From: Octopus sinensis | Taxonomy: Eukaryota | Assembly (NCBI RefSeq): GCF_006345805.1 | Contig: NW_021832231.1 | Coordinates: 310,001-374,000 of the forward strand | Length of the DNA stretch: 64,000 nucleotides | Direction: 5' to 3' | Part shown: in pieces, positions 13,087 through 64,000 of the stretch | How the letters are laid out: each line of letters begins with the position of its first letter | Numbering within the stretch: the stretch's first letter is position 1 | Notes under the pieces: generated by a model | What the model saw: the letters and a program-made list of their open reading frames with translations, nothing else | Told to the model about the DNA's origin: nothing | The model's database searches: none | Translations under genes and position numbers: made by a program

Positions 13087-13452
13087 TCCCATTATGTAAC
13101 TTAATACATTTAAAATTTTTTCGATTTAAACTCATTAAGTAATTTGATTTATTCTATGAAATAGTTATAAACATTCATCAAAAATCAATTTCGCAGATTC
13201 CAATTGATAGTCAATGTTATTTTAATTTATACACTATTATTATGTGCTGAAAATACCTAAACAATTTTAATTCATTTTTATCGATCTTAATTAATTTAAT
13301 ATAGTCAATTCATTTTCATTACTTCCTTTTTCAAAAATAACTAAGAAAATACAAAGAACTGAGTGTGTAACTGAATAGCCCTGTGATAAACTAGTTATTT
13401 TAAAAAATATTAATTTTTTGTATCATAGGGTCATTGATATAGGTACATTTTT

Positions 13453-14946
13453 TTATATTTGATAAAGCAGTAATAAAAAACCAAAGAATTGTTTTAAAAA
13501 ATGTAACTTTCTTACTTTGTTCGACGTCTTTTCGATCTGAGGTCTAAAATAAGAGAGAAACAAATCACTCGGGGAGTCAGTAACTTGTCCGTCCTCAGCA
13601 AAATATTTACTCCGAACACGACGCAAAATAAGCGGGGATTGCTCCAATAACACATTGCTGGTATTGGCAGTCTTCATTGGACTGGCAAATTTACAAATAT
13701 TGTAATCTCTCAGTCTCCAAATACTCCCAGGATTAGCCTAACAGTCAATCAGCTCATCACAACAGAAATTTCAGCCATCAAAAACGCATCACTGACAAGC
13801 TTCCCTGTCTTTGTATCGACATTACCCATCGCGACACTCAGTGCATATTCCTCGTCCAATATACTTCCAAATAAACACAAATAGAAAAGACCACTGATCC
13901 ATGCCTTTGACGGATAGGGGAATCATGTTTAGTGAATGGACTAATCCTTTCTTCACATCAAACACAGGCTGGTAACGAAATGCTTTAAACACCTCCGAAA
14001 AGTTGGATGAATACTCTCTGAGTTGTTCGGAAGAGTAGTTCGTAGGAAAAGCCGCTTTGACTCTCAACGAGACATTCTGGACTGAAATGGAAAACTTACT
14101 TCTTCAATATCCCACTCCTCCTCCCAGGTGTAGTCCCCTTCAGAATAAATTATGGACTTGGCTCGGACAATTCCAATTCCGGGAAGTGAGGGGAGATAGT
14201 CACACCCTGCCAAAATACACATTCTGAGGAATTTTAGATCGTTGAGTTTATCGTTGATTATTCTCCCAATATTTTCCATATCGACGAAATCCCCTTTCCC
14301 CGAATCGTCCAGTTTATACAAGACCTGACCAAATAATCCCAACCAGAGACCTTATGACAGCCAAAAGCTAACAAATCAGAGTCCTCAGAAATAGCAAAAT
14401 CGACTAATCCTGTTTTAAATAAATGGGCGATTTGAGAATCAGCCTCGTAGGGGGCGACTATAAAATCGACGTCCATTTCTATGCAAAGCCTCATCAAGGA
14501 TCGAGCCATCCTGAAATCCACTCCGACAGCTCTCCGCATGTACTCGTAGGCCTCGCTCTTCTTGCCTCGAGATAATAGTTTAAGCGCTGTTTCTCGATTT
14601 TGTTTACGATTGCTTTAAAATGTGATTTAATTAAATAAACTCTGATCGTTTTTTGTTTGTTTCTGACTTGAGGGGGAAAGGGAGTCCGTCAAATACTAGA
14701 ATTGGCACGATTTTATAAGATATCAATAAATTTATCATTTTTTGGCAAAATTTTAGATATCTGTGGATGATTATGATGTGAATACGCAGTTGTTGGTCTT
14801 TCGTGAAATAAATCGGATATGCAGCAAAATGTTCCCCGATGTAACCAACAATATGCGTCAACTGCTACGCGACAGCCAGAAAAGTGACTAAGTTTTTTGT
14901 GGGTTGTGATTGGAGCTAAGAATTTGTGCAAAGATTTAATTCCCAT
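13453..14946 (-). CDS. EXO1: Exonuclease 1 (XPG/RAD2 family); 3' end approximate
   Basis: MGIKSL...VAVDAYCWLHRG, VFDG, VAPYEADSQIA, SEDSDLLAFGC, CILAGCDYLPSLPGIG, FRYQPVFD. Confidence 0.92.
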
Positions 14947-15244
14947 ATTTATGACCCACCACACGTTAATCAAGCGGTCCTGTATTATATTATTTAATTG
15001 AACATGGTTTTAAATATTATTTAACAATTTTATAGCAATTATAATTATTATAATAAATTATATTTCTTTAATTTATTTTTATTTAGATAATTTTTGTCAT
15101 TAAGTTTAGCCAGTATAGTTCAATTACAATTAAAAAAAATTAAAATTATTAAGATTTTAATTAATTTATAATAAAAATAAAATACTTCCTATAATCAGAT
15201 TATCGTTTTATTGTTCTTGTTGGTCATTAATTGTATTCCTAGAA

Positions 15245-15945
15245 ATGCAGGATTGGAAACAGGATACCGAATGGAATGATGCTCTCAGAAAGTTAGGAAT
15301 AATTCCAGAATTACCCAAAGAACCAGAACCCGAAGAACCAATCCATGACGGTATGTCTAACAATACTTATAAATGTTATCAGATGGCATCCACCCAGAAA
15401 AAATGAGTTTAAAGCAGCTTGAGAAAGCAGAGGATTTATTCGACGAGGAAGATGAAATTTTTTTCCAGTTCTACAAGCAACAGAAATTAAATCAACTTCG
15501 ATTAAACCAACAAAGACCGTCATTTGGCTCAGTTGTAGAAATAACCCGACAAGATTGGACTGATCAGGTAAATAAAGCAGGAAATAATATATTTGTCCTC
15601 GTCCACGTTTATAACGATGGGTTTGTATGTGGAATAATTAGTAGTGACGAGCTCTGTTCACTAATCAACAATTGTATGTCCCGTTTGGCCCCCCTTCACC
15701 CATTCTCCAAGTTTATCAGGGGACGGGCTTCCACCTGTGTGGAGAACTATCCCCATAAATATTGTCCGTCGTTGTTTGTGTATAAAAGTGGGGATTTGAT
15801 TGCTCAGTATGTTCGTTCTCAACTGCCTTCTATCTCTTGTTTGAAAGGTTGAGTGGATGTGAGACGAATTTTAGACTTTGAGGAATTTCTGTATAAATTG
15901 AAAGTTATTGAGAGACCGTCCGAGTCGAGCGATTCTGATTACTAG
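15245..15945 (+). CDS. PDCL3: Phosducin-like protein 3 (VIAF)
   Basis: MQDWKQDTEWNDALRKLGIIP, FGSVVEIT..DW..QVNKAG, CVENYP; three introns (32, 24, 27 nt). Confidence 0.9.
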
Positions 15946-21073: not shown

Positions 21074-22885
21074 CAGGTCTGCGGGCCAGATAATATTTTT
21101 ACTTATTTAAGGCTAATATTAATTAATTGAATAAAACTTTATTTAACCAAACAAAGAGTAAATTTTAATTAAATTTGCTGTTTAATTTTTCATACACTGT
21201 CGTTTATTGTTCGAGAGTTCATCGATATTAGGTGCATAGGTCGTGGGCAATAAAATTGAAACATAATTATCCGTAATTCTTGTTCTATGATTGTTTTTCA
21301 TTTTTGAAAATAACTGTTCGCAAACAAAGGTATTTCCAAATAAAGATATTATTTTTGTGGAATGGTTTACTAACAGCGGATATTTTCCACACGGTTGAAC
21401 ATATTTCTCATAAAATTCCACAATGTTACAAGGATTTGAATAAAAAATCGTTTTAAGAACATGATCAGACTGCAAAGCTATAAGTTCCAATTGATAGATT
21501 TCATTTGTTGAATTGATTTCTACATCGAAAGGTATAGAAAACATCTCAAATTCGTCCGAATGAGCTTTAAAGTCAAAAATCAAGATGAAAATTGGGATTT
21601 CAATTCGTTAAGGACATCTAAAAATGAATAAATCATTTGATTTTGTTTCTTTTAAATTTGGGAGATGAATGAAGTTTCGATTTTTGAATTGACAAATCCA
21701 CAAATTAATCTTATTTTAAAATGCAATAATGTGAGAATATAAGCAGTTTTTTTCCTTGTAAATTCAAATTCAGATCATTAAGATGAGAAGTAATGTCAAC
21801 CAAAAATGCAAATTTTGCAAGCCATTCAGGATCACGAAAGTATGAAGCATCAAAATTTTTACTTTCAGTAAATAATCGTACTTTATTATGCAATGAAAAC
21901 AATCGTTTCAACATAAATCCCCTGCTTAGCCATCTAACATTTGAAAAACACGTTAGATCTCCGTATTCTGATTTTATGCCCAGCAAAAACTGCTGAAACT
22001 GACGATGATACATTATTATTAAAACCAAGATCACCGTCCAAAACATAAAACTAATTAATCAGGTGATCCCGGCTTCTCTGAGGAGGGTCCTCATCTTTGC
22101 CCGGTGCTTCTCCCTAGTCCCGGCACAATTTCTGTGAGGGCGCGGTGGTGGAGTTTTAGGGCCTGTAGCCCCGATGTTTCTTCCCAAGATTTCATTAAAT
22201 GGGGCGATGAATAGATGTTCATTCGGTCCTTTTAGTGCTTTTCGAAAGCTTTCTTGAGTTTTTTCGATTTTAACGCGGTTCGTTTCACTGATAAACCCTC
22301 CCCACGCCTCACAAGCATAACTAAGGGAGGGTTCGATAAATTGCCGGTATATTGATTGGCGTGCGGGGAAGCTGATCCATTGGTTTGCATTTTCGGAGGA
22401 ACACTTTTAAGATGTTCAGTTTCTTCATGCAGCTAGTAGTAACATTTTCAACTTGTTGGGAGAAACACATATGACTATCGTAAGTCACGCCGAGGATTTT
22501 CTGGGATTTTTTAAACGGAATTTTCATGTTGTTTAGATACATGTTCACCACCATTTTCCCAAGCTTCCTTGCTGAAGTCATAAGCGTAGTGATCGATTTT
22601 TCAGGACTCGTTGATAGTCGATTTAACGAGAGCCAACTTTCGAGATTGTGGAGGTAGTTCTGCAGTTTTGTACTTGCCGTGTTCACCTCACGGCTCCGGG
22701 TAACAATTACAATATCTGAAACTGACGATGATACAAGGCTCGTGATAATATTACGTTAACAGTATTAGCGTGAATCAAATGTTAATTCATTAAGCATAAG
22801 TACAAATTAAATATTTTATCTAAATAATTTATTTTGTCGGTAATATATACAAATCTATACTCGGGCCGTATTTTGCCGACCCCTG
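21074..22885 (-). mobile_element. hAT (Charlie/GTF2IRD2-like) transposon, decayed
   Basis: VRWLSRG, LAKFAFLVDIT.HLN.LNL.LQG, FGNTFVCEQLFSKMK; terminus TTTGCCGACCCCTG; 8-bp TSD CCATAGAC/CTATAGAC. Confidence 0.85.
22013..22715 (-). mobile_element. 5'-truncated copy of the Ingi/Vingi-like retroelement at 54537
   Basis: High similarity to 55740-56440; (TAA)n tail; 20-bp TSD CTGAAACTGACGATGATACA at 21993-22012 and 22716-22735. Confidence 0.9.
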
Positions 22886-22943: not shown

Positions 22944-24326
22944 TCTGACATCGTTCAAGGCGATATAATCTGCTCCTAACAAGAACATCATTATTCGGAT
23001 AGTCGACGATGCACTTCGAAATAATTTGGTTCAAAGGGAAAATTTCCTTTTGTTATTTACGGATGCTGCAAATTATATGAAATTAGGTTACATTTTATGT
23101 TTTAGCTGAAAAATACTTAAAAATCTTTACCCCAAGTTATTTCATGTCACATGTGCCGTTCATCTATTACACAATTGTTGTGAGAAAATATGAGACTCTT
23201 ATCCTGAAATTGATTTAATGATAGCTACTGTACAAGCTGCCATTAACAAAAACAATAGAAGAAAACAAATATTCAAAGATAGAAACATCCCCATTCCACT
23301 TCGTGTGCATTTGGAAAGATGAGGTCCTGGCTTAAGACCGCTACATAATATTCAGAAAATCTTATTAGAGTTCAAAATATTTTCGAATCATTCGCGGATG
23401 ATGGATAATTCGAACAGCTAAAGAAAGTCTCAAAAACCATGTGTTAGTTAGCAGTCTATGTGACTCTATCCGATGCTATTTGAACATTCCAGGTTTCCAA
23501 ATAATGTCGTTATTGTAGATATTCCTAAGAAATTTGAAAGTACACGTTGCACAATTGAAGAAGCATATGATAGTTTAGAATCGTTGAAATTTGGAAATGA
23601 CAACAAATTTATTAAAGAATACATAAATAAAAGGCTTCAAAAAAGATATTTCAAACATAAATAAAATAACTAATTTACACACATCGCCTGCCGAGTATTC
23701 ATTACTTCTGAATTGTCAGCCAACTTTGTGCTCGGTTGAAAGATGTTTCTCTGAGATAAAGTCCAGCCGAAATTTTCTGATAAAAAATTTCGGAAATTAT
23801 GTAATTTGTATATGTATCAAAAAGTTTTAGTGTTTTTATTCTTTAGTTATTGAGTGCCGGCAGGATCCCCAGACACGCCTCATTGAATGACGTTGTGAAG
23901 CGCGAGCTTAACGCCGCTGGATTCCCCTCAATGTTAGAACCGGTAGGACTAGACAGTGGGGATGGAAAACGCCCTGATGGGTCGACTTTATTCCCGTTCA
24001 GGGAGGGAATGGCACTCGTGTGGGATGTTACCTGCGTAGACTCATTTTCCTCACATCGTTGGTTGACTCCGCTTCTCGTCCTGGATCTGCATCTGTCTTT
24101 GCCGAATCTAGGAAAACTGCAAAATATGGCTCTTTGACCGATACCTGCTGCTTCATTCCTCTGGCTTTCGAGACCAGTGGGATAATTGCACTCAAAGCCC
24201 TCAAACTCCTCTCAGAGATGTCGCATACTATAGGCGAGTTGTCGCATAGCCTTTTTTTTAGTTTTTAGGTTTATAAAGTTAATTTTTTTAGATTAAATTT
24301 TTATTTTTACGTAAAAAAATCGCCCT
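22944..24326 (+). mobile_element. hAT-like (DUF659/CGGBP1-related) transposase pseudogene containing a CRE fragment
   Basis: TDAANYM, LYPKLFHVTCAVHLLHNC, SVERCFS motifs with stops; right end ...CGCCCTA. Confidence 0.7.
23850..24240 (+). mobile_element. CRE-like REL fragment
   Basis: [11 protein letters not shown]...[15 protein letters not shown]...WDVTC...PLAFETSG. Confidence 0.85.
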
Positions 24327-30449: not shown

Positions 30450-31197
30450 TACCTTTCCAAGTTCAATATGGGAATTTCGAAATTCAATATCGGGATTTCC
30501 AAATTAAATATGGGATTTTCAAGTTCAAGGATTTTCAAGTCGGTTATTGAATTCATTTATTAATTTAAAATCGCCTTACATTACAAAATGTACGTTATAA
30601 AAAGAAAGAATTAGCTGAAAAAAGAAAAAATTTGTTGACCGTTTACGAAAATGATGGGGATTGGAATCAAGTTGCATGTTCAGAATTTCGGAAACAGAGA
30701 TTGGAGGATTTAATTAAACAATCTATGGACGAAGTTACTCCAAAGATTTGTGCTAAGTTAATAGCCAGAATCCAAGGACTATTGCCTTCCTTATTAAATT
30801 ACAAGGACGTAACATTTTAATTTTTTCGTTTGATATAAATGAGTCATGATTTTTTTTTCAAATATTTTAAAATTAACTTGGAAAATCCCACTTTGAACTT
30901 GAAAATCCCATATTGAATTTGGAAAATCCGACTTTGAACTTGGAAGTCCCATATTGAATTTGGAAAATCCGACTTTGAACTTGGAAATCCCATATTGAAT
31001 TTGGAAAATCCGACTTTGAACTTGGAAGTCCCATATTGAATTTGGAAAATCCGACTTTGAACTTGGAAATCCCATATTGAATTTGGAAAATCCGACTTTG
31101 AACTTGGAAATCCCATATTGAATTTGGAAAATTCCACTTTGAACTTGGAAATTCCATATTGAATTTGGAAATTCCCATATTGAACTTGGAAAGGTAT
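30450..31197. mobile_element. Foldback/Tc1-like non-autonomous element with repeat-built terminal inverted repeats
   Basis: Inverted termini TACCTTTCCAAGTTCAATATGGGAATT flanked by TA; arms made of 20/21-bp subrepeats; centre holds a helical ORF remnant (30632-30820). Confidence 0.75.
30876..31190. repeat. Tandem array, 41-bp dimer of 20/21-bp units
   Basis: AAATCCCATATTGAATTTGG-AAAATCCGACTTTGAACTTGG repeated about 7 times. Confidence 0.92.
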
Positions 31198-31214
31198 AGA
31201 TTGATTAGTTTTTG

Positions 31215-32030
31215 AGAGGTGAATTTCTTCCAATTTCTGAAACCATATTGAAACTGGTTGCAAAAAAAATTTTTACAAAAATAAATTACGAATCACTCAA
31301 AGCATCAAATGGATGGCTCAACCGGTTCAAGAAAAGGCAAGATTTGCTATTTAAAAACTATAAGTGGAGAAAAGAATTCGTCTGACCTTTTTTCGTTGTC
31401 CAATTTTATCTCTGATTATGACAACTGTTTAGAATATGTGTGAAATAAAAATATTTTTAACTGTGACGAAACTGCTTTATACATAAATGGTTATGGAAAG
31501 TAAATCAAGATATGATCAATGAAAACAGAAAAATTGTTTTAATACTGGATAATGCGAGCTGTCACAGAAATGCAGAATATTCCACTGTTCATTTATTTTT
31601 TTTCCAAAAAAACGACCACTTCAATTCAACCCTTAGATATGGAAATAATAAGATCCTTCAAGTTCCTCTACTTCAATAAACTGATTGATTTTACCATTAT
31701 ATTTGAAAAAGAACAGCTCTCAGATTTGAAATCTGAATAATATCAATCTTCTACAACTCATTGCAGTTGTCGGGAAGGCATGGAGAATTATGCCGAAAAC
31801 AACGATAATTAATTGTTGGCAGAAAATTAACGAACACAGATTAGAAATTTCGGAAAATGTACAGTTGGACGAAGAATTAATAAATGAATTGATAGCAGAT
31901 GTTGTAATAATGGATTCGACAATATTATTCAGCAAAAAATCACTTATGATGGAAATGAATCCAAAAAATCATCAATTAAGGAAATCATGAACATAATGAA
32001 TTCTCTAGAAGATAATCTTTTAGTACATGC
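31215..32030 (+). mobile_element. pogo/Tigger transposase remnant
   Basis: LKASNGWLNRFKKR (CENP-B HTH), IFNCDETAL, TTSIQPLDMEIIRSFK, TIINCW. Confidence 0.75.
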
Positions 32031-34090: not shown

Positions 34091-34514
34091 TAAAAAAGTT
34101 ACGTAGCTTCCTTCACAATCACAAGCTAGAAAATTGTGCCAAATATATTCTAATGATTCTTCCAGGATCAAATTCAAGTATTCCATCAAATTTTATTTTT
34201 TAGACAACAAAAAATTTTTTTGATAACCGATGAGACTCAAATCCGAAACCAACGATATGTTGCGGTTTTGGTGGGGTCAATCAAACTCCCTAGAATTAAT
34301 TTGGTTTCATTCGAGCAAATTGATTCTGCACCTACAAAAAATATTATAGACCAGATTGTTTATGATACGATCCGAAATCTTATTTCGAAAGGGATAATTT
34401 TATGCTTTTTATTTCTGATGCTGCAAGGTATATGATGGCCGGTATTGTTTTAATTCATTTACGATTTAGCCGGGAAAGTTTTAAAAAATCTATATCCTAA
34501 TCTTTTCTATGTCA

Positions 34515-36020
34515 ATGCCACGATTGGAGGGCCGTGGGGAAAAGTTTTTGACGTTCTGTCACAAGCCGTGCCTGTACTACGAAAACTCGGACTTGATATA
34601 AATATAAAGAAATCGGAGCTGATAAATATCACATACTCGGAAAGTGATTTTATCAACGTGGTCAAGTCTTTCAAATCGATATTACCTGGGATTACTGTCT
34701 TACCTCGGGAGAGGGCATACTTTCTTGGGTGCCCACTTGGCGAAAAGGAACTGCGGTGCCATCTGCTGGAAAAAAACAAGGGTCTTTCTAGAGTTACGGA
34801 GAAACTCTCCTTACTCAATGCTCATACTGCATTCTTCCTTTTGAAAAATAGCATTGGCTTGCCTAAACTCCAATACGCTCTCCGTTGTTCTCCCTGCTTG
34901 GAACATCGAGACATTCTACAGACACTGGATAGGACTTTGAGAAGTTCAGCTGAATCGCTCCTGAACATCCACTTCGACGAACCTGGTTGGAATCAATGCA
35001 AGCTTCCTACACGCATCGGAGGAACGGGTCTCAGGTCGGCGCTGGATTTCGCATTCCCGGCATATCTGTCATCGCTTTCAAGCTGCAGTCATCTCGTCCA
35101 GGAAATCCTACGTAACACTACTGGACTCTCCTTGGACACAGTATTTGACAAGGCTTGCTTGCAGTGGAAGGAAGCCGGACTTTCAATCCCAGATGATGTC
35201 TCGAGACAGAATTGTTGGGACGCAATATCATGCAAGGCTGTCGTTGATGACCTGAAGCGGGAGTTGAACCAACACCGGCTCGTCTGTTTGCTATCCGGGG
35301 CACAGCACGGGAGTGGTGCATGGCTCCACGCATTTCCATGCAGTTCATTCGGTACGCTTATGGACGACGATTGTGTGAGAATCGGTGTTGCACAACGCTT
35401 GGGTCTTGACGTCTGTCAGGAACACAGATGCCGGTGTGGAGGAATAGTCGATTCCAAAGGACTACACCCTTTGTCTTGCAAGAGGAGTGCAGGTCGCGCT
35501 CCCCGCCATGCCGCACTCAACGACATAATACGACGGGCCCTCGAGAGCGCAGGATTTCCAGCACACCTGGAACCCATCGGGCTTGACCGGGGAGATGGCA
35601 GAAGGCCCGATGGGATAACTCTTTTCCCGTACTCCCAGGGAAAATCACTCGCATGGGATGCGACGTGCGTAGACACGTTCTCCCAGTCCATGATTCTTCG
35701 GAATATTCATTCGCCCGGTTGGGCTGCTAATGCAGCAGAAAAGGCGAAGATATCTAAGTATTTGGAGATCGGAAAACTTTTCCGTTTTGTTCCTATCTCG
35801 ATAGAGACGTCTGGTGTAGTGGGATCCAAAACCGCGGAATTTCTCAAGGAAATTGGGGCGATGCTGGCTAAACGAAGGAGGGACAGTCGCGAGGGGTATT
35901 GGCTTCGCCAACGTATCGGAATTGCAGTTCTTCGTGGCAACACGCACGCGATACTGGCTGCCGGAGCGTGACGATTTATAATATAAAACTAATCTAGCTT
36001 CAAAAAAAAAAAAAAAAAAA
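34515..36020 (+). mobile_element. CRE-like non-LTR retrotransposon, 5'-truncated, with uninterrupted 3' ORF (RT thumb, zinc knuckle, REL) and A-tract
   Basis: 467-aa ORF with LP.R.GG.G, CRCG..VDSKGLHPLSC, RH..LND, RPDG, WDATC, ETSG, RGN; A-run at 36002-36020. Confidence 0.92.
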
Positions 36021-36889
36021 TTAACTAATTAATAATATCAATTTAATATAAAATTGCGTTTTTCATATTTTACATAATTGTTCAATGGAGGTCAGAAAAT
36101 CTTATCCAGAAGTCGATGATGTGATAGCTAGCGTACATGCTATTAGAAAGAATCAAAAGCGACAATTGTTGTTTTCAAAATTGAAATTCCACCAAAAGTC
36201 GTATTGACTAGATGGGGTACCTGGTTAAAAGCTGCATCTTATTATTCAAAAAATTTAATCTCAGTGATTAATATTTTCGAGTTAATTGAGAACAAGGGAA
36301 TTTTAGTAACTTCTACGAAGAGTGCATTGAAAAATGACAGATTAGTACAAGTTTATGTGCAATTTCGCATTGCCATTCACACATTTCAGGTTGTTTATAG
36401 AAAAAATATTAAAATTTGAGAGTAACGAATGCACAATAGGCTACGCATATTTGACTCCTAGTTTAATGGAATTTGGGAAAGATGAAATAGAGGTTAAAAA
36501 ATATTTGGAGAAGAGAATTTCGGAAAGCGATCTAACGAAAATTATTAATATGGAATACAAAAATATCTCTTTTGAAGATTATTCATTCCTTCAAAACTGT
36601 CAGCCATCCTCAGCATCTGTCGAACGATGCTTTTCGCAATTCAGGAGTTTCTTGAGGTTAAATAGAAACTTTAGTACTCAAAATCTGGAAAATTACGTTA
36701 TGTCAATTTTCAATAAATTTTCCTTAAAATAAGTTTTGTCTTCTATTATCTCGTATAAAAGTTTAAACTAAGAACTTTACACGTTTAAGTTAAGAAAAAA
36801 TAATTATTTTTTTAATTTTAAAGTTAAAAATTTTGGTTTATAGGTTAATAAAGTTAACTTTTTAAGGTTAATTTTTTTCAATTTTTCTG

Positions 36890-37610
36890 GCTTGCTTATT
36901 GGCCGCCCCGCAACCATATTCTGGTGCATGGCTTACAGCAATCCCTATGGCGTCAATCGGCACCTTAATGGACAACGACTGTGTAAGGATTTCCGTCTCT
37001 CTCCGCCTCGGACTTCCCATTTGCAGAACACACCAGTGCCGCTGCGGTTTAAGAGTGGACTCATTTGGCCATCATCCCCTCTCCTGCTCACGTAGTGCCG
37101 GACGTTTCCCACGACACGCCGCCATCAACGACACCGTGAGCCGTGCCCTAACGACGGCGGGGTTTCCTAATGAGCTCGAACCAGTCGGGTTCGACAGAGG
37201 CGACGGTAAGCGTCCGAATGGCATGTCAATCTTCCCGTTTGAAAAGGGGAAATGCCTTATCTGGGACGCCACCTGTTCCGACACTTTCTCCGCCAAGAAT
37301 CTAATTGTCTCCGCTACGGAACCGGGCTCAGTTGCAAAGCAGGCGGAACTAACAAAACAGAAGAAGTACCGGATCCTGGCAAAGAATCACCAATTCACTG
37401 CAGTCGCGGTGGAAACCTCTGGAGTCATCGGCCCGCAGACGCTATCGTTTCTCCGCCGCCTTGGATCTAAGCTCGTGGTTACCACGAAAGATCCCAACGA
37501 GTCGATCAGACTCTTTCAAAGGATCTCATTGGCCATCATGCGCGGGAATTGCCAGTCGATCCGCTGCGCATTTTAACTCTTTTTGTTTGATATATTTAAT
37601 TTCAATTTAA
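36890..37610 (+). mobile_element. CRE-like 3' fragment (zinc knuckle plus REL)
   Basis: SGAWL..IP, CRCG...DSFGHHPLSC, RPNG, WDATC, ETSG, RGN. Confidence 0.9.
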
Positions 37611-38949: not shown

Positions 38950-39555
38950 ACACAGTGGCTTCTGGCTTGAAGCTTTCCCGTCGGCATTAACGGGCTCGTT
39001 GTTGGTTGAAGAGAATCTCCGAATTGGAGTTGCTCTCCGGTTGGGTCTTGACATCTGCATTCCCTACCGGTGTCGATGTGGAGGAATAGTGGATGCAAAA
39101 GGTCTGCACCCCCATTCACGTGCCGCCATAGCGCAGGCCGCTCTCCTCGTCATGGGGCACTCAACGACGTCATCTTGAGAGTACTTAATGCAGCTGGTTT
39201 TCCAAATGTACCTGAACCAGTGGTCTGAACGGAGAGGACGGCAAGCGGCCGGATGGGATGACAACCTTTCCATTCCAAAGTGGAAAATGCCTCATCTGGG
39301 ACGCAATTTACACAGAAACTTGGTCCCCATCCGCATCTTCTTCTGGATCCGCGGCTTTGGCGGAAGCCCAAAAAATAGAAAAGAACAGAAAACTCGCCGC
39401 CCTACATTCATATGTCTTTCTTGCATTCGGAACCTCCAAAGCATTTGGCCCCCAAGCATCGAAATTCCTGCAAGACGTCGGCCTCCTTATCGCTTGGAGG
39501 AAAATGGATGCACGTGAATCCTCTTGGCTGAAATAAAGGATCTCTACTTGGCCCG
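38950..39555 (+). mobile_element. CRE-like 3' fragment, decayed
   Basis: [36 protein letters not shown]. Confidence 0.8.
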
Positions 39556-43385: not shown

Positions 43386-44517
43386 TTAAATCTCTATTTT
43401 AAATTTATATATGCCTAGAAATACAAAAATTGATAATACGCGACATTTTCAATCAAATTAGACTGAATCTTTTGCATTCACATCTAATTTAAAACAACCA
43501 CGAGAATGCCTTATTTGTCAGAAAATTTTAAATCGAAACAAAAAATCAAATTTAGAGAACCATTTTAACACAAAGCACGCGAATTTTGCAAAAATATTTA
43601 GTGGGTTACTCGCAAAAGAAAACTGGAAAAACTTAATTTTTTAATAAATTCATAATTATTATTGAATTTTTGTACAAGAATGTCAAAAATTAAATCTTCT
43701 CTAAAAATTTTTGCCGACCCCTGCACTACACATCACAAAGATAGAAAAACCATAGCAGCCTTCCTCTTCCAATCAAAATCATACCTAAAATTGACCCAGG
43801 TGAGAGATTATATATTCAGTTCGATAATCTTATTCTGGTTAATCATTTGTATTTTTCTTTGAACATGTTTTACCACCTTTTATTGCTCTTGTATTATTTT
43901 TTTGACCTCAATACAAAAATAAACACATCCTAACCAATCATAAAGAAAATAGTCGGACTATTTGCGTTTTGTATCACAAGTGGTTGTTTTTTAAAAATAT
44001 TTCAATTTTATTCTCAATACTGTGTCGCAGCGACAACACGTGACAAAGAGTATTCTTGCACATGATTTTTGTTGCGTATTTTCTACTTGGGACGCAAAAG
44101 ACCATAAAATGTATGCTCAAGCAATTGATCTTCTCAAAGATAGTGATTTAATCTTTCTCGTCTGGCTGTTTGCCGATTGTTAACAAGGCTGTTGCAGAAC
44201 AGTAATCTTTTATGCATGATCACGTTTAACGTAGTTATGGGAGTTAATGTGTATTCCGGTTTGATAAAATTCTAAAAACTCATGCGAATTCCTAGAATTT
44301 AAGCTAACCACAATAATTCTAATTCATATTGGTAATGACAATGTGTATTTTATACAATAATCAAATCGAAATAACATTAAATGCTTTCTTCAAAATAAAC
44401 ATTCGAACTGATACGATCATTCAACAATTTCTCAATAAATAAATTAAACAAATATATACCAATTTTATTAAAAAATTTCAGATTCGCAGAACCGAAGCAA
44501 TTATTTTATACGATCAA

Positions 44518-46954
44518 ATGTCAACTCGATGTACAGCAATAAAAAAATGGTTAGCGGTTGTCATTATTCTAAAATTGTCGCTAGCTATATATTCCAATCC
44601 GAAGTATAAAAATACGAATGTTTACTTTCATTTTATTTTTGTTTATTTATGAAAACTGGAGTAATTTTGAGAATTGTTTATTATAGTTATTTCATATGAC
44701 TACATAAGGATTGAAAATGTCACATGGTTTGAATACATGAGTTTATGGAGTACAAATTACAAACCGATAACAATGAATGGAGAATATTATAGGATGGTTG
44801 AATATATAAACATTGGTGATGGTAATTATATTCACATTTTTTTCGATCTAGGATGGATTGGAATGGAAATATTTTCTTATTGGAATATTGGATATGTTTA
44901 TGGGACTAAGGTTTGGAATTTGGACGGAAAGTCTAATTGATAATTCAATTTTAGATGTATTAAAGATTTGATTTCCTGCCAATGGGGGTTATCTCAGTTA
45001 AAGGACTGTCAGGAGAGATATTTCGGGTATTTAGTTCAAAATAACCACGATCAATATAAAATTTCAAACTGCGAAAAAATCCACTATTATTGTCCTAACA
45101 TAGATTCTATTTCAAAAGGTGACATTAAAGAATGTAAAAATGGAAATGGTAATAATAAAATTATTGTTTGTAAAAGAATCAAGAACTGTAACATGCAATT
45201 ACGACATCTTTAGGCAACTTCAGATAATCCAAGTCGAAAGCACAAATGAGGTAAACCGGAAAATAATTAATAGGATGTAAAAAACATTAACCAGTTTTTG
45301 AATTATGCAAATGCAAAAAATAACTTGACAGGAAAGGAAAGTGAGGTATTTTTTTACAGTAGAAAACAATTGCAACCACATTATATTGCATTTAGGCAAT
45401 TCTTTCTAAAATCAGCAATCAATTGTCTTATTCCAAATCCACAGTTTCTGATGAAATGGTGAAATCAACAAACATCAAGTCATACATCATTTTTAATTTA
45501 ATTAGAATTATGAAGACCATAACAAATATAATAATTTCTACTGATGCCAAACCCGGCACAACCAGATTTAGTTTAGAAAATTTTGATGCAAAGTTGTTGA
45601 CTTTGAACAGAACAAACATAAATTCGTCGATTCTAGATAATACTGAATCCGCAATTAAAATAAAATTTGACAAAAAACATCTTCAGGATTTAGTAGAAGG
45701 TAAAATAAAATATCTTACCTGTAAGAATCTGCAAAACTAAAAATAGCATTTGTTTTTTGGAAGAACGATGAACTTTTTAACATTTTTAATAAATCAAAGC
45801 TTCAGACATCTGTTGTGGGAATATTGGTGAATACTAACAAACCGATTCATAATTTGAAAATAAAACTTGAGTTTCCAGGAAGTATGTTTGTATAATAATA
45901 AACAAGATTTCACTATAAAATCAGTTTGTGTATATCTGAATGTGTCCACACAAGACTGGAAGTCAAATGGATGCACCAGTAAGATTACAAAAAATGGGAT
46001 ACAATGTACGTGTACTCATCTGACTAATTTTGCAGTCATTTTTGTATTTTTTGTGAAATAATTATTGCATATAGGACCCGTCTATAGTAAAAGAATATAA
46101 ATGGCTGAGCATTCTTACAAATGTTGGTCTTGCAATATCAATAATAACAGAGATTGTCGTCATTGTTTACTCGATTGTGTCGTGGAGGTCATGTGATTAC
46201 TTTAATTTTCAGAAATGGACATAAATCTTATTCATTTAAGTTATTTTTAAATTTATGCATTGCAATGCTTCTGATGAACCTTGTTTTTGCTTTTGGGATG
46301 GAATTCGGTAAAAATAGGAGTTGTGGGGCAGTTGGATTCCTACTGCATTATTTACTGTTGTCTGTGTTTGCCTGGATGACAGTAGAAGGAGTCTTCTTTT
46401 ACTATTTATTTGTCCGAGTTTTTGGAAATATTCCAGTCGATTTTTTAAAAATTGCATTTTGCACTGCTTGGGGTCAGTTTCTAATAATAAAATCAACTAG
46501 GCGTTCCCATCATTCCACCAATCATCATATCTGCTATTAATTGGAAAATGTATATGCAAAAACAAATGTTTTTGTTTAACTTCATTTTTAGATGCTGGCT
46601 TAATGGACTTGCATTATATTTGGGCTTATACTTCCCTATTGCTATTTGCTTAGCAATTAATATCATTATTTTCATACTCATCCTTATTAATCTCGATAAA
46701 AACAGAAGACGAAAAAAATTATTTTCAAGAAACATGTCGTCAAAATTTAAAGAATTCTTTTTGCTATTCGGATTAATATTCTTTTTTGGTAAATTATTTT
46801 TATTTTTTAAGGCATAACTTGGGTTTTTGGTTTTTTCATAAAATATAACCATTCAGTATTTCTGCAATTTATCTTCGTTTTCTTAAATTCGTTTCAAGGT
46901 TTTTATCTGGCTGCTTTGAGATTTTCCGCATATAAATACCAATCAAAACCTTAG
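44518..46954 (+). CDS. Adhesion GPCR, copy B (recent paralog of 10650-13086)
   Basis: Near-identical exon/intron structure, GPS and 7TM. Confidence 0.9.
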
Positions 46955-47689
46955 TCCAATTATGTAACTTAATACATTTAAAATATTTTTCGATTTAAAC
47001 TAATTAAGTAACGTGGTTTATTAAATGTAATAGTTATGAACTTGAATTCAAGTTATTTTGTAGATTTCATTAAAAGTGTAGTAGGTATTCTAATTTTTGT
47101 TATATTTCCCTTTACTTATTTCTTAAAATGATCATTTACTCTTTTTTTAATGTCGGTCTTGTTTAAAGTTTACCTAAATTTCAACATTTTTGTGTATAAT
47201 TAAGTTTTAGACGCAAATATTCCTGAGTTTTGCTTACATCTGGCGTTTTTCTTTTTGAAGATTGTTCTTTTTGTTTAAAGACTGACTTACATCTTTTTTT
47301 CCCTATGTTTCGTTCCCTCTAATTCTCTATCAAAAATCGACAATCTTGTCTACGAATCATAAATATAAAATCTCAATTCGAGTTGTACTGGTGACGGTTT
47401 TAACCCTGCCAGGCTACCTACACGTTTCGCAGGGATCGGAATTCGCTCCTGTGCGGACCTGGCTTTGCCTTGCTATTTTTTCCACCTCGGCTTTCAGGAA
47501 TTTTGTTTGCTCAGTTCTATTATCTTTTTTTGAATTCAACGAGTTTTTGGAATACTCCTCCGCCTGCTGTGTTTGCTGCTTATTTGGCCTTTGTTTCCTT
47601 GCGATTTCTTTAGTACAAAGGAGCTGAAACAAAATTTACTGTTTAAATACATTACCCAAACTTCGCTTAAATTCGGACCAACATTAGCT

Positions 47690-48375
47690 GGCCTCACTAT
47701 ACTGCATTTGTCAGCCGCATATGAGAGACTGGCTCAAAGCACTCCCTATCCCCAGTACGGGATTACTACTGGACGATGAATCCTTGCGGATTATCTGTTT
47801 ATGCTTGGGCTTGGACATCTGCTAGCCCCACCCATGCCGGTACGGAACCAAAATTTTGCGAACGGCTTGTACGCCTTGTCGTTCAAGAAGAATGTTAATA
47901 GAATTCCTTCCCACACTTAACTAAACGTTGTCAGGAGGGCTCTAGAGTCGGCAGGTTTTCTTTTCACTCTAAAGGCAGTCAGTCTCTTCCTGAGTGACGG
48001 TAAGCGTTTCGACGGGGTGACAACCTTTTTCTTTTAGGGAAAGAAAGTTTTTGGTTTGAGATGTCACCTGCGTCGACTTTTTTCTGCGGCGATGCAACCT
48101 AAGACTGTTAGCAACCCGAGCTTTGCCATTGCTCAGGCTACAACGTCAATGAAGAAGAAATTCTTGTGTATTCCGGATTTTTTGAGTTTGTCCCTTTTGG
48201 CTTTAAAACCTCAGGAATTGTCGGCAAGGCTGCGACTAAACTTTTCACTTACATTGGTAAAGAATCTCCTTGAAAACAAACGATTGGAGGGAGACAAGCT
48301 GGCTTTTCCAACGAATCTTGGTCGCTGTGCTCCGCGGAAACTGCCATTCGATACGCAGCGCGGCATCGTTGAGCT
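47690..48375 (+). mobile_element. CRE-like 3' fragment, heavily decayed
   Basis: RRALESAGF, DGKRFDG, DVTCVD, LFQRILVAVLRGNCHS. Confidence 0.7.
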
Positions 48376-48956
48376 GAGCTTCTTGGCTATTCTTTAGCTA
48401 CTTACCTATCTAGCCTCTAATTTTTTGGGACTTTCATTTATAAATATTTAATCTAAAAAATATCACGATCACGCTTTGATATTTATCGTTAAAGTGAAGA
48501 TTATCTCAAGCAGTGAATTGCACTTAATTCGTAAAAAGTGACTTCCTAGATAAATTTTCTTTATCTGAGATTGTCTCTACATTCTTTAAGAAATATAAGA
48601 TCAAGGAAAGTTGGCACGGATATATACAATTTATTTGAAGAAAACACTGTAGAGCACGTTCGTTGAATAAAAGTATGGTTCTGAAAATACGCCTTATTTT
48701 GCTAAAAAGGGATAACGACAAGATTCTATAATCGAAGAAGGCGAACAAAATAACTCCAATTGGTAACACCAATCATGGGAAGAGGATTACAGAGGTAAAC
48801 TTTTTTGTGGCTGTCGAGCAGCCTGTAAACTATTTAATTTAGCCATAATCACTTTACAAATTGGAAATATTTAATTAATCTTTTTTTTTTTTAATTTTTT
48901 TTTTATTAAAACTAGTTTTTTTTAATTAATCACGACAGAGAAAAACACTTAATTTA

Positions 48957-53314: not shown

Positions 53315-54258
53315 TTAATATTTCAAATCCTCATTAATATTATCATAATAATGACTATGATTAAATTGAGAAATCCAAGGATGTTCTTGTGCCTCAGCAA
53401 GAGACATTCTCTCTCCAGGCTCACTCCTCATCAACTAAAAATACAAAAAAACTCAACTTACACTCAAAATAAAATCTTTAGCCTCCCTGGACACACATTC
53501 TGGCACAGAAAAGTCCATATTTTCAATATTTTTCATAATTTGTAGCTCACTCGAATGAGAAAAAGGAGTTTTCCCCACCAAAAGTTCATAGGAAAGCACT
53601 CCCAGGGCCCAAATATCAACAGAGTGGTCATATCCAAGTCCCCTGACCACCTCTGGGGACATGTACTCGACAGTCCCCCCCATCGTGATGCACCGGGAGG
53701 CATCTGGGTGGACGGATATCCCAAAATCGGAAAGACGGACAATATCGTGGAGTGCAAACAATACATTGGCGGGCTTTATATCTCGGTGGATAACCCCAAA
53801 TGAATGACAATGTTTAAGCGCGAAAATAAGTTCGGAAATTATCTTAATTGTTATTTAAGTATTACTCGTGAGGCTTCTCGTTCAGTGAGGGCCCCCCTTG
53901 CCTGTAATTTGTCCTCGAGTGACCCGTTGATGGCATGTTCCATGACTAAATAGACTGTCTCGTCGTCGTAGAAGTAGTCGAATAGTCTGAGGATGTAGGG
54001 ATGTCTTGTATGACTCACTCCACTTACCTCAAATGGTAGTGGAACTCTATTTCTCGGTAGACGTTGATTATTCCGTTTTTGGGGAGTCTGTCGTAGTCGA
54101 TTGCTTTTATTGCATATACGGTCTTTGTTTTCTTTTCTTGGACCAGGAATACATTTGCCAATGCTCCTGAGCCTATTTTCTTCCCGATTATAAAATCGTC
54201 TAAACAGTAGCGCTTTCTATTTTAATTATGTCATTATTGACTACTTATTGTCGCACAT
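53315..54258 (-). CDS. Aurora-like Ser/Thr kinase (divergent)
   Basis: LDDFIIGKKIGSGAFANVFL, REIEFHYHLRHPYILRLFDYFYD, HRDIKPAN, DFG, GTVEYMSPE, DIWALGVLSYELLVGKTPF, HPWI. Confidence 0.8.
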
Positions 54259-54470
54259 CGATATTTATTAATTTCCGGTATTTTATTTAAAATATAAGTT
54301 GTATATAAACTATTTATTATATAACTTAATTAAAAATTCGAATTACTGATCACATTATTTATATTTTTGCGATTTAACAAATTTCCCGGATTTTCTAAAC
54401 GATTCTTTTTAAAAAAATAATTAAAAAACTCTGATTTATATAAATATTATTTTTTTATTGTAACAGTTTT

Positions 54471-56510
54471 TAATAATTAATTTTTTTAATAAAAGAAAAA
54501 TAACAATTAAGTGGGGCATGCATCATTCAATAGAGAATTTAGTTAAGCATGCGTCGTGTGATTCGCCTTTTGTGGTGGCGCAAAAATCCAGTTATTGGAT
54601 TGAAAAAAGAATCATTCGCTCATCCCCCCGCGACTATCGTCAGTCCGGGGCGGCCTTCTCTGTGGACCTCACTCTCCCGTTTTGCCCTTCTCACTATCTG
54701 TGGGGATGTGGAACCTAATCCCGGCCCAAAGAGGCATATATCAATTCTCCAACTGAACATCAACGGAGTTACCGGAAAATCAACAGAACTAAACTCTTTT
54801 TTGATCAAGCATGATATCGACATATGTGTACTCCAAGAAACAAAACTCAATCCTTCTTCGAGGTCTCCACGTTTCCCCAACTACCACATGGAACGCCTGG
54901 ACAGACCCTCAGGCCGTGGAGGGGGTCTCATAACACTTATTAAGAAGGGAATCACTTACCAGGAGAGCTCCCCTTCGCTCAGCCCTAAAGGAAGCAAAAA
55001 CACGAGTCTGGAATTTTCTGCAATTACTATCCCCATCTCACTTGGAAACATAGTGATTTGCAATATGTATATCCCACCAACAGGATCGTGCCCGAAACAT
55101 TTTATCACAGATCTACGCCCGTTTGATAATCACGATAATCTAATTATTTGTGGGGACTTGAATGCAAAACACCCGCATTGTTTAAAGTCACAAACCGCTG
55201 ACTCCCGAGGAAAGTCTATTCTCGAGCAATTGGACAACCTTGTAATCCTGAACAACCCATCACTGCACACAAGAACTCCTTACAACACCAAGGACAAGCC
55301 TACCTCCCCCGATCTGACCCTCTGTTCCTCCAACCTCGCACCTCTGGTCAAATGGGGCGTTACCTACGATCTACGGACCACCTCGCACCTTGTCACTTTG
55401 ACGAACTTCATCTCAGATGGACTATCTACCAAACCGTATAACCAAAAAACGGTTATGTGCTCAGTGGATATCCATAAGGCTTTTGACTCCGTTCCCAGAA
55501 AAATACTGACCAGGAAAATATCCTTAGTGGAATTCACCCAAGACTGAAAATGTGGCTAGCTAACTTCCTCAGCGGCCGAAGAGGCAGAATCCAACAAAAC
55601 AATACAAGATCGATGTCTCGATACTTTCCAAACGGGGTCCCTCAAGGCTCCCCCCTTTCACCAGCCCTGTTCAACCTATTCTTATCGGATCTACCGCTAC
55701 CAAACGACAAAGACTCAATCATTTTATCATACGCTGACGATATCGTAATTGCTACCCGGAGCCGTGAGGTGAACACGGCGAGTACAAAACTGCAGAATCA
55801 CCTTAACAATCTCGAAAGTTGGCTCTCGCTAAACCGACTATCAACGAGTCCGGAAAAATCGGTCACCACGCTTATGACCTCAGCAAGGAAGCTTGGTAAA
55901 ACGGTGATGAACCTGTACCTAAATAACATGGAAATCCCGTTTCAAAAATCTCAGAAAATCCTCGGGGTGACTTACGACAGTCATATGTGTTTCTCTCAAC
56001 AAGTCGATAATATTACTACGAGGTGCATGAAGAAACTGAACATCTTGAAAGTGTTTCTTCGTAAATGCAGACAGTGTATCAGCTTCCCCGCACGACAAGC
56101 CTTATACCGGCAATTCATCGAACCCTCCCTTAGCTATGCTTGTGAGGCGTGGGGAGGGTTTATCAGTGGAACGAACCGCACTAAAATCGAGAAAACTCAA
56201 GATCGCTTTCGAAAAGCACTGCAGGGACCGAACGAACATCTACTCATCGCCCCATTTAATGAAATCTTGAGAAGAAACCTCGGGGCTACAGGGCCTAAAA
56301 CACCACCACCGCGCCCTCACAGAAATTGTGCCGGGACAAGGGAGGAGCACCGGGCAAAGCTGAGGACCCTCCTCAGAGAAGCCGGGATCACCTGATTAAT
56401 TAGTTTTATGTTTTGGACGGTGATCTTGGTTCTAATAATAATAATAATAATTAATTTTTTTAATAAAAGAAAAATAACAATTAAGTGGGGCATGCATCAT
56501 TCAATAGAGA
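54471..56510. repeat. 66-bp direct repeat (54471-54536 = 56445-56510), target-site duplication containing the INTS11 ATG
   Basis: Identical TAATAATTAATTTTTTTAATAAAAGAAAAATAACAATTAAGTGGGGCATGCATCATTCAATAGAGA on both sides. Confidence 0.93.
54537..56444 (+). mobile_element. Ingi/Vingi-like non-LTR retrotransposon, internally deleted, with 2A peptide, APE and partial RT
   Basis: LLTICGDVEPNPGP; APE motifs QLNING, LQETKL, YIPP, GDLNAKH, SPDLT; RT motifs DIHKAFDSV, GVPQGSPLSP, YADD, LGVTYD; (TAA)n tail; flanking 66-bp direct repeat. Confidence 0.9.
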
Positions 56511-58491
56511 TTCTGCCCTTAGGCAAGTGTCCTAATCATATATCTTTAAGGAGCTGGACAGGACGTCGGCAGGAGTTGTATAATCCTCACAATTGCTGAC
56601 AAACGAATCATGCTTGACTGTGGAATGCACATGGGCTACAGTGACGAGGTGACATTCTCCCTTCACACTCCCACAGAGAAGATTCCCCGACTTTAATTTA
56701 ATCACATCGGAAGGACGAAGTCTTACAGATGTCATCGACTGTGTAGTCATAAGGTATTTCTGACTATATATACGACCAGTCACTTCCATTTAGACCACGT
56801 AGGAGCCCTTCCTTACATGACTGAGGTTGTGGGATATCAAGGACCAATATTTATGACTTATCCTACAAAAGCAGTGTCCCCAATTCTCCTGGTAGTGACA
56901 GAATCACATTTCAGGACGACATGAGGAAAGTCATGTTTCAAAAAGACAAGGAAGAAGTATTTACTTACAATATGATCTCTGCTTGTATGTTGAAAGTGAC
57001 ACCTCTCAGCATCAACGAGACTTTCAATGTCGACGTGTCTTTAAGTCTGAGGACATTTCCCGCTGGGCATGTTTTGGGGGCAGCCATGTTCCTTATAAAA
57101 GTCGGGGACATTTCTGTGCTTTATACAGTAGTTTGGGGTTGTTGTTTTGCAGGGGGATTTCAATATGACTGCCGACAGACACCTCGGGGCTGCCAAAATA
57201 GACTTTGGGTTGGAGCCGAATGTTGTTATTAGCGAATCGACCTACGCCACGACGATTCGGCAGCCAAAGAGGTTCAGAGAGCGAGAATTTTTGTCCAAAA
57301 TTCAAAACTGTCTTGTCAACTCAGGAAAAGTGCTTGTTCCTGTGTTTGCCCTTGGGAGAGCCCAGGAACTGTGCATTCTCTTGGAAAATCACTGGGAGAG
57401 ACTCGGACTGGATTATCCAATCTATTTCAGTGCGGGACTTGTAGAGAAAGTTATTATTACGTAATAATGGCAGGCACATTTTTATTATCGACTTTTTGTG
57501 ACGTGGGAGAGTGAAAAGATTCGGGAAACTTTCGTCGATCGTAATTTATTTGAGTTTAAGCATATAAAAGTAGTATTTATACATATTTTTGGTTTTGCAA
57601 AAATCGACGTGTGATGAAGAAGGGCCGATGGTTGTTTTTGCCACTCCCGGAATGCTCCATGCAGGGACGTCTCTGCAGATATTCAAAAAATGGCATTCGG
57701 ACCCCAAGAATATGGTTTTATTCCGTGATTACCAATTTTAGGTGATCATTCCGGGATATTGTGTTCAGGGGACAGTCGGAGAACAGCTTTTGAGCGGGAA
57801 ACGAAAGTTCCAGATTGACTCGGATGAATTCGTGGATGTCAAATTGAGCGTAGAATATCTATCGTTTTCTGCCCATGCCGATGCTCGGGGAATAGTGCAG
57901 TTACTGCAGCAATGTCGTCCTCAAAACGTGGTCCTTGTGCACGGGGAATTGGCCAAAATGAAGTTTCTCTCACACAAAATAACCGACGAGTTGGGTATTT
58001 GGATTATCCGAATATTTCAGACATTCCTTGTTATATGCCAGCAAATGGAGAGAGATGTCTTATTAATATTAATAAACATGTGCCTTGTCTTGTCGAAAAG
58101 TCTGTTCGACCTCCACATGTTTATATTGACCAATCAAATGATATTCCTCTTGTTTGTGATCCACGAACAGTGTCCGAAAGAATGGGGTGGCCAGCCATGT
58201 CAGTCACTCAGAGGTATCGGCGTGAGCACGTGTGTGACTCACCAGTCGATTTAATATCGAGATTGGCTGCTGCATTGAAGTGTGTGATCTTCGGGATATT
58301 ACCATGACGGAGGGAGGGTTTGTTGCAAGAGTTATTGATGAAGAGGAAATTATTCTGGTTGAGGTACAAAATGGAGGTGAGCGAGTCATTACTACTGTCT
58401 CGTGGCCTATTCAAGTTTGTGTTCGTTGATTTAATTGTAGAATTCGAAGAGGGGAATTAGTTTATCCAGCTTTATTGATTATTTGTTCTAA
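56492..58491 (+). CDS. INTS11: Integrator complex subunit 11 (CPSF3L), MBL/beta-CASP nuclease
   Basis: [88 protein letters not shown]. Confidence 0.95.
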
Positions 58492-62760: not shown

Positions 62761-62955
62761 TTATCCACAAATTAATTTTTTGCTTTAATTTCTGATAAAA
62801 ATACGACCGAAAAGACTTACACATTTTGAAAAGGAAAGTATTTGTTTCCTAATTGACTTTGGCCAAAATTCCACTAAAGCATATTTGAACAAATTTTTCA
62901 AAATCAAATTTTTAAAAGTAAGAGTTTTATCATTTTATTTAATCCATCTTTGAAA

Positions 62956-64000
62956 TCTTAATAATAAAATGGTATGGTGTGTGTCGTCTGTCTGTCTGTG
63001 TGTCTGTCTGTCTGTCTGTCTGTGCACACCCACATTCAAATTGTTACAAACCAGATCAATAAAAAATTATTTTCTGCGTTTTTGTTAAAATGAACAACAA
63101 GAAAGTCCTCGACTCACATGATGTGGTCCCCCAAAACCTTCAAGGTAAAAAATTAAAAAAATTATTTTCTGCGTTTTTGTTAAAATGAACAACAAGAAAG
63201 TCCTCGACTCACATGATGTGGTCCCCCAAAACTTTCAAGCCAAAAAATTAAAAAAATTATTTTCTGCGTTTTTGTTAAAAAAACAACAAGAAAGTCCTCG
63301 ACTCACATGATGTGGTCCCCCAAAACCTTCAAGCCAAAAAATTAAAAAAAATTATTTTCTGCGTTTTTGTTAAAATGAACAACAAGAAAGTCCTCGACTC
63401 ACATGATGTGGTCCCCCAAAACCTTCAAGCCAAAATAAAAAAAAATTATTTTCTGCGTTTTTGTTAAAATGAACAACAAGAAAGTCCTCGACTCACATGA
63501 TGTGGTCCCCCAAAACCTTCAAGCCAAAAAATTAAAAAAAATTATTTTCTGCGTTTTTGTTAAAATGAACACAAGAAAGTCCTCGACTCACATGATGTGG
63601 TCCCCCAAAACCTTCAAGCCAAAAAATTAAAAAAATTATTTTCTGCGTTTTTGTTAAAATGAACAACAAGAAAGTCCTCGACTCACATGATGTGGTCCCT
63701 CCTCAAAACCTTCAAGCCAAAAAATTAAAAAAATTATTTTCTGCGTTTTTGTTAAAATGAACAACAAGAAAGTCCTCGACTCACATGATGTGGTCCCTCA
63801 TAACCTTCAAGCCAAAAAATTAAAAAAAATTATTTTCTGCGTTTTTGTTAAATGAACAACAAGAAAGTCCTCGACTCACATGATGTGGTCCCCCAAAACC
63901 TTCAAGCCCAAAAATTAAAAAAAAATATTTTCTGCGTTTTTGTTAAAATGAACGACAAGAAAGTCCTCGACTCACATGATGTGGTCCCTCAAAACCTTCA
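62956..64000 (+). mobile_element. Probable Helitron 5' portion
   Basis: A|TC start, TAATAATAAAA, then a (GTCT)n microsatellite and a tandem array, the layout typical of animal Helitron 5' ends. Confidence 0.5.
63058..64000. repeat. ~95-bp tandem repeat, 10 copies, running off the window
   Basis: Unit ATTATTTTCTGCGTTTTTGTTAAAATGAACAACAAGAAAGTCCTCGACTCACATGATGTGGTCCCCCAAAACCTTCAAGCCAAAAAATTAAAAAA; periods 94-98 bp. Confidence 0.97.

Follow-up and report, generated by a model that had tools for sequence, protein, structure and literature searches.

An Outlying 66-bp Target-Site Duplication Flanks a Young LINE Copy Just Upstream of INTS11 in a Tiny-Intron Contig of the Octopus sinensis Assembly

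In a 64,000-nucleotide stretch of the Octopus sinensis assembly (GCF_006345805.1, contig NW_021832231.1, positions 310,001 to 374,000 of the forward strand; hereafter the window), an exact 66-nt direct repeat lies on either side of a non-LTR retrotransposon at the start of INTS11, a gene essential for snRNA processing. We find that the repeat is a target-site duplication of the retroelement and not a part of the element's own sequence, and that it is the lone outlier in its family. On balance, we think it probable that a young, internally deleted LINE was inserted 47 bp upstream of INTS11 by target-primed reverse transcription with a distant second nick, and that INTS11 likely starts from the 47-nt leader together with the AT-rich tail of the element. 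The original prediction had the long duplication rescuing the gene; the causal story is the reverse, in that a long duplication protects what lies on the 5′ side of the element and not the gene on its 3′ side.

Results and Discussion

The Repeat at INTS11

The two copies of the repeat (54471-54536 and 56445-56510; Table 1) are 100% identical and are spaced 1,974 nt apart, whereas 2,000 random pairs of 200-nt windows placed 1.9 kb apart contained no exact repeat longer than 14 nt. The 66-bp duplication beside a retroelement is thus borne out. A 25-nt pattern taken from the repeat occurs at only two places in the whole assembly, both at the INTS11 site, and the 3′ flanks vary among copies of the element, which rules out the repeat as an element terminus shared with other copies, an outcome against which the original prediction had itself warned. 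No other copy carrying the INTS11 leader, as a retro-copy would, was found in the assembly. The repeat consists of 47 nt of AT-rich leader followed by 19 coding nt (six codons, the ATG included, and 1 nt), and its left copy stops at the first base of INTS11 codon 7, in agreement with the earlier statement that some 47 bp of upstream sequence and six codons had been copied to the other side. Its initial 7 nt (TAATAAT) can be assigned either to the (TAA)n tail or to the target, which gives a duplication length of 59-66 bp.

Table 1. Features of the window discussed in the text (positions are those of the window)
Feature	Position	Strand	Basis or remark
5′-truncated sister copy	22012..22716	-	20-bp duplication
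Aurora-like kinase gene, divergent neighbour	53315..54259	-	Aurora match
Native head-to-head spacer, 258 nt, 16% GC	54260..54517	.	Aurora ATG to original INTS11 ATG
Left duplication copy, 59-66 bp	54471..54536	+	47-nt leader, ATG, 6 codons + 1 nt
Orphan 66-aa ORF from duplicated INTS11 ATG	54518..54718	+	overlaps element ORF, out of frame
Extra 9 nt, 5′ junction	54537..54545	+	between repeat and element's usual 5′ end
Non-LTR retrotransposon copy, both ends present	54546..56444	+	97.9-99.6% identity to 7 copies compared
2A-like motif, element ORF residues 53-60	54705..54728	+	sequence motif; N-terminal of endonuclease
APE endonuclease domain	54747..55355	+	PF03372, PF14529
Internal-deletion junction, ~977 nt removed	55377..55378	+	copy comparison
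Remaining RT and C-terminal part	55378..56395	+	domain matches; no RNase H
Element 3′ UTR and (TAA)n tail	56396..56451	+	sequence
Right duplication copy	56445..56510	+	start = inferred first nick; AATAAA at 56462, INTS11 ATG at 56492
INTS11 gene	56492..58491	+	introns placed by eye: eight (23-28 nt) plus one uncertain

The Element and Its Clade

The element has the marks of an APE-type non-LTR retrotransposon, with an N-terminal APE domain followed by RT, a simple-repeat 3′ tail, 5′ truncations, and duplications of variable length. Full-length family copies are ∼2.88 kb and have a single ORF without ORF1, the start of which lies within ∼4 nt of the 5′ end; in the window copy, this ORF begins at ATG 54549. 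Because full-length copies exist and one of them (L034) keeps a 909-aa open frame with both the APE and RT domains, the family has been active recently. The internal-deletion junction of the window copy is unique in the assembly, and since no other copy shares the ∼977-nt loss, a spreading deleted subfamily is ruled out. The window copy also has a one-base gap near 55521 relative to all five copies covering the position, which is either a mutation or an assembly error. Elsewhere in the family, L054 has ∼20 nt of the extreme 5′ end joined to position 767, either a second kind of internal deletion or a template jump, and in L042, L043, L045, and L046, 200 nt from the 5′ part of the element (the 2A-like region included) are fused to a common unrelated downstream sequence, possibly a derived repeat.

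Judged by its sequence, the window copy is a young, internally deleted single-ORF LINE that is Ingi/Vingi-like. Like Vingi, the family is built on ∼2.9 kb with one APE-RT ORF and no ORF1. Pfam-type domain matches revealed no RNase H domain in the window copy or in L034, and the domain is present in only 1 of the 120 RT relatives listed, none of which is a named clade reference. This absence, along with the compact single ORF, is a likeness to Vingi, and internally deleted copies are a feature of Vingi-1_EE as well. The Ingi clade, as described in PMC13708176, has RNase H. With Ingi and L1Tc the element has in common an N-terminal 2A-like motif, at a position expected of Ingi; residues 53-60 follow the 2A consensus and form a putative 2A-like peptide. 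The motif is found in 4 of the 120 relatives listed, in 2 of them at the same position. According to PMC3708506, 2A lies 40-80 aa from the N-terminus in Ingi and L1Tc and none was found in Vingi; an RT alignment in the supplement of that paper bears on the clade question. What sets the present element apart from both Vingi and Ingi is the combination of a 2A-like motif with the absence of RNase H, and an ORF at the very 5′ end.

A 5′ HDV-like ribozyme, expected of Ingi, gave no Rfam match at the 5′ end of the element. The first 70 nt (54549-54620, also coding) allow an HDV-like nested pseudoknot to be drawn, and the descriptor, which was built after seeing the fold, fits 13 of 2,000 shuffles. 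HDV-like ribozymes depend on a catalytic C in the linker. In the 12 of 13 alignment rows used, the linker is without this C in every copy (12/12), no pair has a compensatory change, and the folding z is -1.2. The fold may possibly be that of a decayed ribozyme.

Duplication Lengths across the Family

All 81 exact matches to the 3′ end of the element were combined with BLAST hits, giving 89 3′ ends that reduce to 70 distinct sites. A duplication scoring at least 10 was recovered at 29 of the 70 sites, as compared with 2 of 400 mismatched-flank controls. The other 41 sites have no recognisable duplication, and an unconstrained search of these for long repeats returned one 12-nt match only. Apart from the INTS11 copy, the remaining 28 duplications span 10-35 bp with a median of 15, two of them exceeding 20 bp; those of the 13 youngest copies span 11-25 bp. 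The check on duplication length over the family that accompanied the original prediction thus leaves 66 bp as an outlier against the median of 15, while the 20-bp duplication given for the sister copy in the window stands. Overlap of the tail with the target by 1-7 nt is seen in 25 of the 28 duplications and 5-21 extra 5′ nt in 8 of the 28, and because both are common in the family, the window copy can be said to have its usual junctions.

Only the INTS11 copy (1/29) has a duplication above 35 bp, which rules out long duplications as a family-wide trait. Such a trait is reportedly found in R9 of Adineta vaga, a non-LTR element with long duplications at a fixed target as a property of the family; here, in contrast, the long duplication is one of 29 and the family is without a fixed target. 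The nearest parallel is L1. PMC5223499 describes duplications of >100 bp in up to 10% of L1 events in HeLa cells and ascribes the rare long ones to a distant second nick, and duplications of several to several hundred nt are noted in PMC1291365. Both families have a tight mode, at 15 bp here and at 13-15 bp for L1, and rare outliers that are ascribed to a distant second nick; they differ in that we are dealing with a natural genomic copy of a non-L1 family at a gene start and not with cell-culture events. Since the family mode is tight, there is no sign of a general repair defect, and the long duplication at INTS11 is likely a one-off insertion accident. Another long duplication by a non-LTR element is that of RTE-1 in prk-1, which is said to be ∼200 bp in length and to include prk-1 coding sequence. 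That C. elegans insertion is reported as intronic in PMC1291365. Our search of the literature, partial in coverage, found no precedent for a LINE duplication covering the start codon of an essential gene.

Geometry of the Insertion

The gene downstream of the element matches INTS11 (E 9e-40) better than CPSF73 (5e-19), and separate CPSF73-like loci are present in the assembly. The alignment of exon 2 with the fly and human INTS11 proteins begins at their residue 11, and most of the orthologues listed start 7-15 residues ahead of the same motif, which makes ATG 56492 the likely start and agrees with the intact ORF originally read from this ATG. The first intron (56523-56550) appears as a 28-nt GC-AG intron; three of the four differences of a short-read X1 contig lie inside it. 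The divergent neighbour, called an Aurora-like kinase in the same prediction, does match Aurora kinase.

The Aurora-like gene keeps the whole native 258-nt intergenic region, while INTS11 has lost 211 of the 258 nt and kept 47, and is now separated by 96 nt (21% GC) from the stop codon of the element. The tiny promoters assumed at the outset find support in the very small spacers between tandem neighbours, of which the start codons were placed by eye: 60 nt separate the Aurora stop from an MTA-like ATG, and 74 nt separate the INTS11 stop from a carboxypeptidase ATG, each at ∼15% GC. The first exon of the MTA-like gene gave no database match. XPG-family and phosducin-like genes in the window (14946-15245) also stand head to head ∼300 nt apart, like the Aurora-INTS11 spacer. 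From an ATG in the 3′ UTR at 56408, a frame of 28 hydrophobic residues stays open up to 56491, passing through the tail (as Ile codons) and the leader, and enters INTS11 without a stop.

According to the standard model as set out in PMC4245944, the first nick is joined to the 3′ end of the element, and a second nick downstream sets the length of the duplication. Applied to this site, the model would have the (TAA)n tail anneal at TAATAAT (54471-54477), which would fix the 3′ junction and place the first-strand nick 40-47 bp upstream of the INTS11 ATG. The second nick was likely made at a distance of 59-66 bp, where 15 is usual for the family, and this would have copied the leader, the ATG, and six codons to the 5′ side of the element. 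The original promoter would now read into a defective element, where the orphan ATG would open an out-of-frame ORF from which no useful protein is expected. We note that the start (54518) and 66-aa length of this ORF are as first described, and that it runs into the element out of frame with the element ORF (ATG 54549). In what we regard as the weakest step, INTS11 would have become a tandem-type gene 96 nt behind the element stop, like its 60- and 74-nt neighbours.

Under this model the right copy starts at the first nick, and a 15-bp duplication beginning there would give INTS11 an identical 47-nt leader and an unchanged ORF. The frame of INTS11 would thus not depend on duplication length, and neither rescue nor rebuilding of the gene by the long duplication is supported. 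An insertion into codon 7 describes the second nick only; the first nick falls 40-47 bp before the ATG.

Host Genome and Window Surroundings

The contig that carries the window is 1.03 Mb long, in an assembly of 2.72 Gb. Introns of the window genes are 23-28 nt long, and three of them appear as gaps in short-read contigs, two 23-nt introns of the Aurora-like gene being missing from an X2 contig and a 27-nt INTS11 intron from an X3 contig. The window gene is the sole INTS11 that we found on small tiny-intron contigs; a second INTS11 with a long intron sits on a large contig, and all 81 exact matches to the element 3′ end lie off large contigs such as this one. The tiny introns, the second long-intron INTS11, and the distribution of the element together suggest a small-genome organism that was co-assembled with a large host, and the contig likely belongs to a tiny-intron parasite. 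Among animals, such introns are reported only for dicyemids and myxobolid myxozoans (PMC13644364, PMC6543705). One named relative of the RT (P0227) comes from an octopus gene set, on a 483-kb contig, which leads us to favour a dicyemid.

Other repeats were seen in the window. A block of ∼2.5 kb is duplicated at 10585-13172 and 44453-47041, the copies being 95-99% identical where aligned and each having a secretin-family 7TM frame. Tandem arrays with 41-nt and 95-nt units occupy 30793-31232 and 62952-64000. Diverged copies of another repeat family, which presumably resemble the ends of restriction-like-endonuclease retroelements, are found at 23846-24134, 34454-35968, 36872-37573, 39130-39514, and 47972-48394; these have open frames with no Pfam match.

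Alleles of INTS11

The short-read check drew on assembled contigs (32 of 629 pieces), which cannot show transcript starts, strand, or allele frequency. One X1 contig ends at 54500, the branch point of a 31-letter graph if the tail joins the repeat; this favours a real 3′ junction, X1 being possibly the source sample. A second contig of X1 continues past the end of the repeat into INTS11, with differences from the assembly at 56528, 56545, 56547, and 56716. A second haplotype therefore exists in the short-read contigs, and it may be empty.

These contigs bear on the alternative that the filled INTS11 allele is weak or silent, segregating in the parasite population or heterozygous, with function supplied by an empty allele, which we consider a possibility of secondary weight. 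The copy is young, with identical repeats and up to 99.6% identity to other copies, the X1 contig runs unbroken across the repeat end with its four differences, and flanking contigs differ from the assembly too; for a dicyemid genome from pooled animals, PMC6736024 gives a heterozygosity of 1.24%. However, none of the seven joints in the listed short-read contigs skips the element, and an empty-site allele was found neither in the assembly nor in the metagenome contigs. A spliced INTS11 contig in run X3 (same sample as X1) covers the 3′ part only and is ambiguous as to allele: it has the assembly base at 57737 and not that of the X1 contig, with the phase over 1.2 kb uncertain. Among 120 of 1,759 protein hits, there was no near-identical INTS11 (best 72%).

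Other Copies at Gene Starts

To place the INTS11 insertion among its relatives, 122 flank frames from 31 sites were scanned with Pfam (two best frames per flank), and gene starts were placed by eye. Of the 28 well-defined sites, four have a gene start no more than 260 nt away. One is L115, a sense copy of 87 bp whose duplication measures 19 bp and which precedes an RPAP2-like start by 51-98 nt. The other three have the gene on the left: an enoyl-CoA hydratase start 53 nt from the first nick at L085 (35-bp duplication), an NFX1-like start 131 nt away (16 bp), and a DCAF15-like start 223 nt away (12 bp). At L085, the likeliest RRP4 stop is ∼95 nt away from the duplication. This locus and L087, L102, and L103 represent one older insertion in the RRP4-like/enoyl-CoA hydratase interval, assembled four times at 98-99.7% identity. 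L106 was ruled out as a gene-start insertion, as its flank is another retroelement. Insertions into other mobile elements are frequent among the remaining copies, and an aspartyl protease exon is interrupted by one. The survey of gene-start proximity that had been suggested yields no significant excess against a rough baseline of 6-9% derived from the 14 gene starts in the window (P 0.07-0.24), with P at 0.002 if the baseline is put at 2%.

Three of these four copies have ordinary duplications of 12-19 bp, and the proposal that long duplications make gene-start insertions survivable finds no support. Against our reading, the two longest duplications in the family (66 and 35 bp) are both at gene starts, and one could imagine that a long duplication was selected because the left-hand gene benefits, the Aurora-like gene keeping 258 nt instead of ∼226, in which case long duplications would be enriched at tight gene starts. 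We think this improbable. L085, with its left-hand start so near the first nick and its four assembled copies, is in keeping with selection, but the NFX1-like and DCAF15-like genes, also on the left, have short duplications, and with two cases, one of them (INTS11) chosen because its duplication is long, selection and chance cannot be told apart.

Expression of the Displaced Gene

Tf1 of Schizosaccharomyces pombe offers a comparison for insertions of this kind. PMC7175516 describes it as inserting in promoters while neighbouring genes are left intact, and as able to compensate disrupted promoters. The likeness lies in a compact genome, an insertion in a promoter region, and intact neighbours; as differences, Tf1 belongs to the LTR elements, is actively targeted, and gives promoter activity, whereas the gene-start excess here (4/28) is not significant against the rough 6-9% baseline. 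Within the family, L115 shifts its promoter by only ∼106 bp and is a weak precedent for a displacement of 1.97 kb.

By analogy with Tf1, the element might itself supply INTS11 transcription, either from a promoter within its 3′ part or as read-through. The compensation reported for Tf1 insertions (PMC7175516), the common orientation of element and gene, and element sequence in X2 and X4 contigs (kind of run unrecorded) speak for such a role. We nevertheless hold it to be unlikely, as any transcript beginning before 56408 would include an in-frame ATG that extends the protein by 28 residues, most of them hydrophobic, and the AATAAA at 56462 could end element transcripts ahead of the INTS11 ATG. 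Trans-splicing finds no support either, since inspection by eye before seven gene starts revealed no common AG acceptor. A scan for bacterial promoters gave hits at chance level and is irrelevant to this organism.

An assembly artefact or chimeric long read, for which one could cite that neither junction is spanned by any listed short-read contig (32 of 629 pieces) and that the internal deletion is seen nowhere else, is very improbable: the copy shows the signs of insertion seen across the family (a tail that overlaps the target, extra bases at the 5′ end, and an exact duplication), and the end of the X1 contig at 54500 agrees with a real 3′ junction.

Conclusions

The mechanism proposed here, a LINE insertion with a distant second nick, is an ordinary one, as there are earlier examples both of promoter insertions and of long duplications that arise sporadically. 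Our analysis corrects a common misreading of long duplications at gene starts, since it is the 5′ side that is protected and not the 3′-side gene, and the site is useful as a natural promoter-truncation test. Our literature search, which was not aimed at that question, found no promoter study of such animals. We tentatively suggest that a gene in a tiny-intron parasite may need <50 nt of its own upstream DNA, with the 3′ UTR and (TAA)n tail of the element acting as a ready-made spacer, so that copies might split the bidirectional promoters of essential genes, convert head-to-head pairs to tandem ones, and capture the old promoter for the element. The filled INTS11 allele, if fixed and expressed, would be natural proof of a minimal animal promoter: a gene for snRNA processing would then function with no more than 47 native nt upstream, and this would set a limit on promoter size in an animal genome that is among the most reduced.
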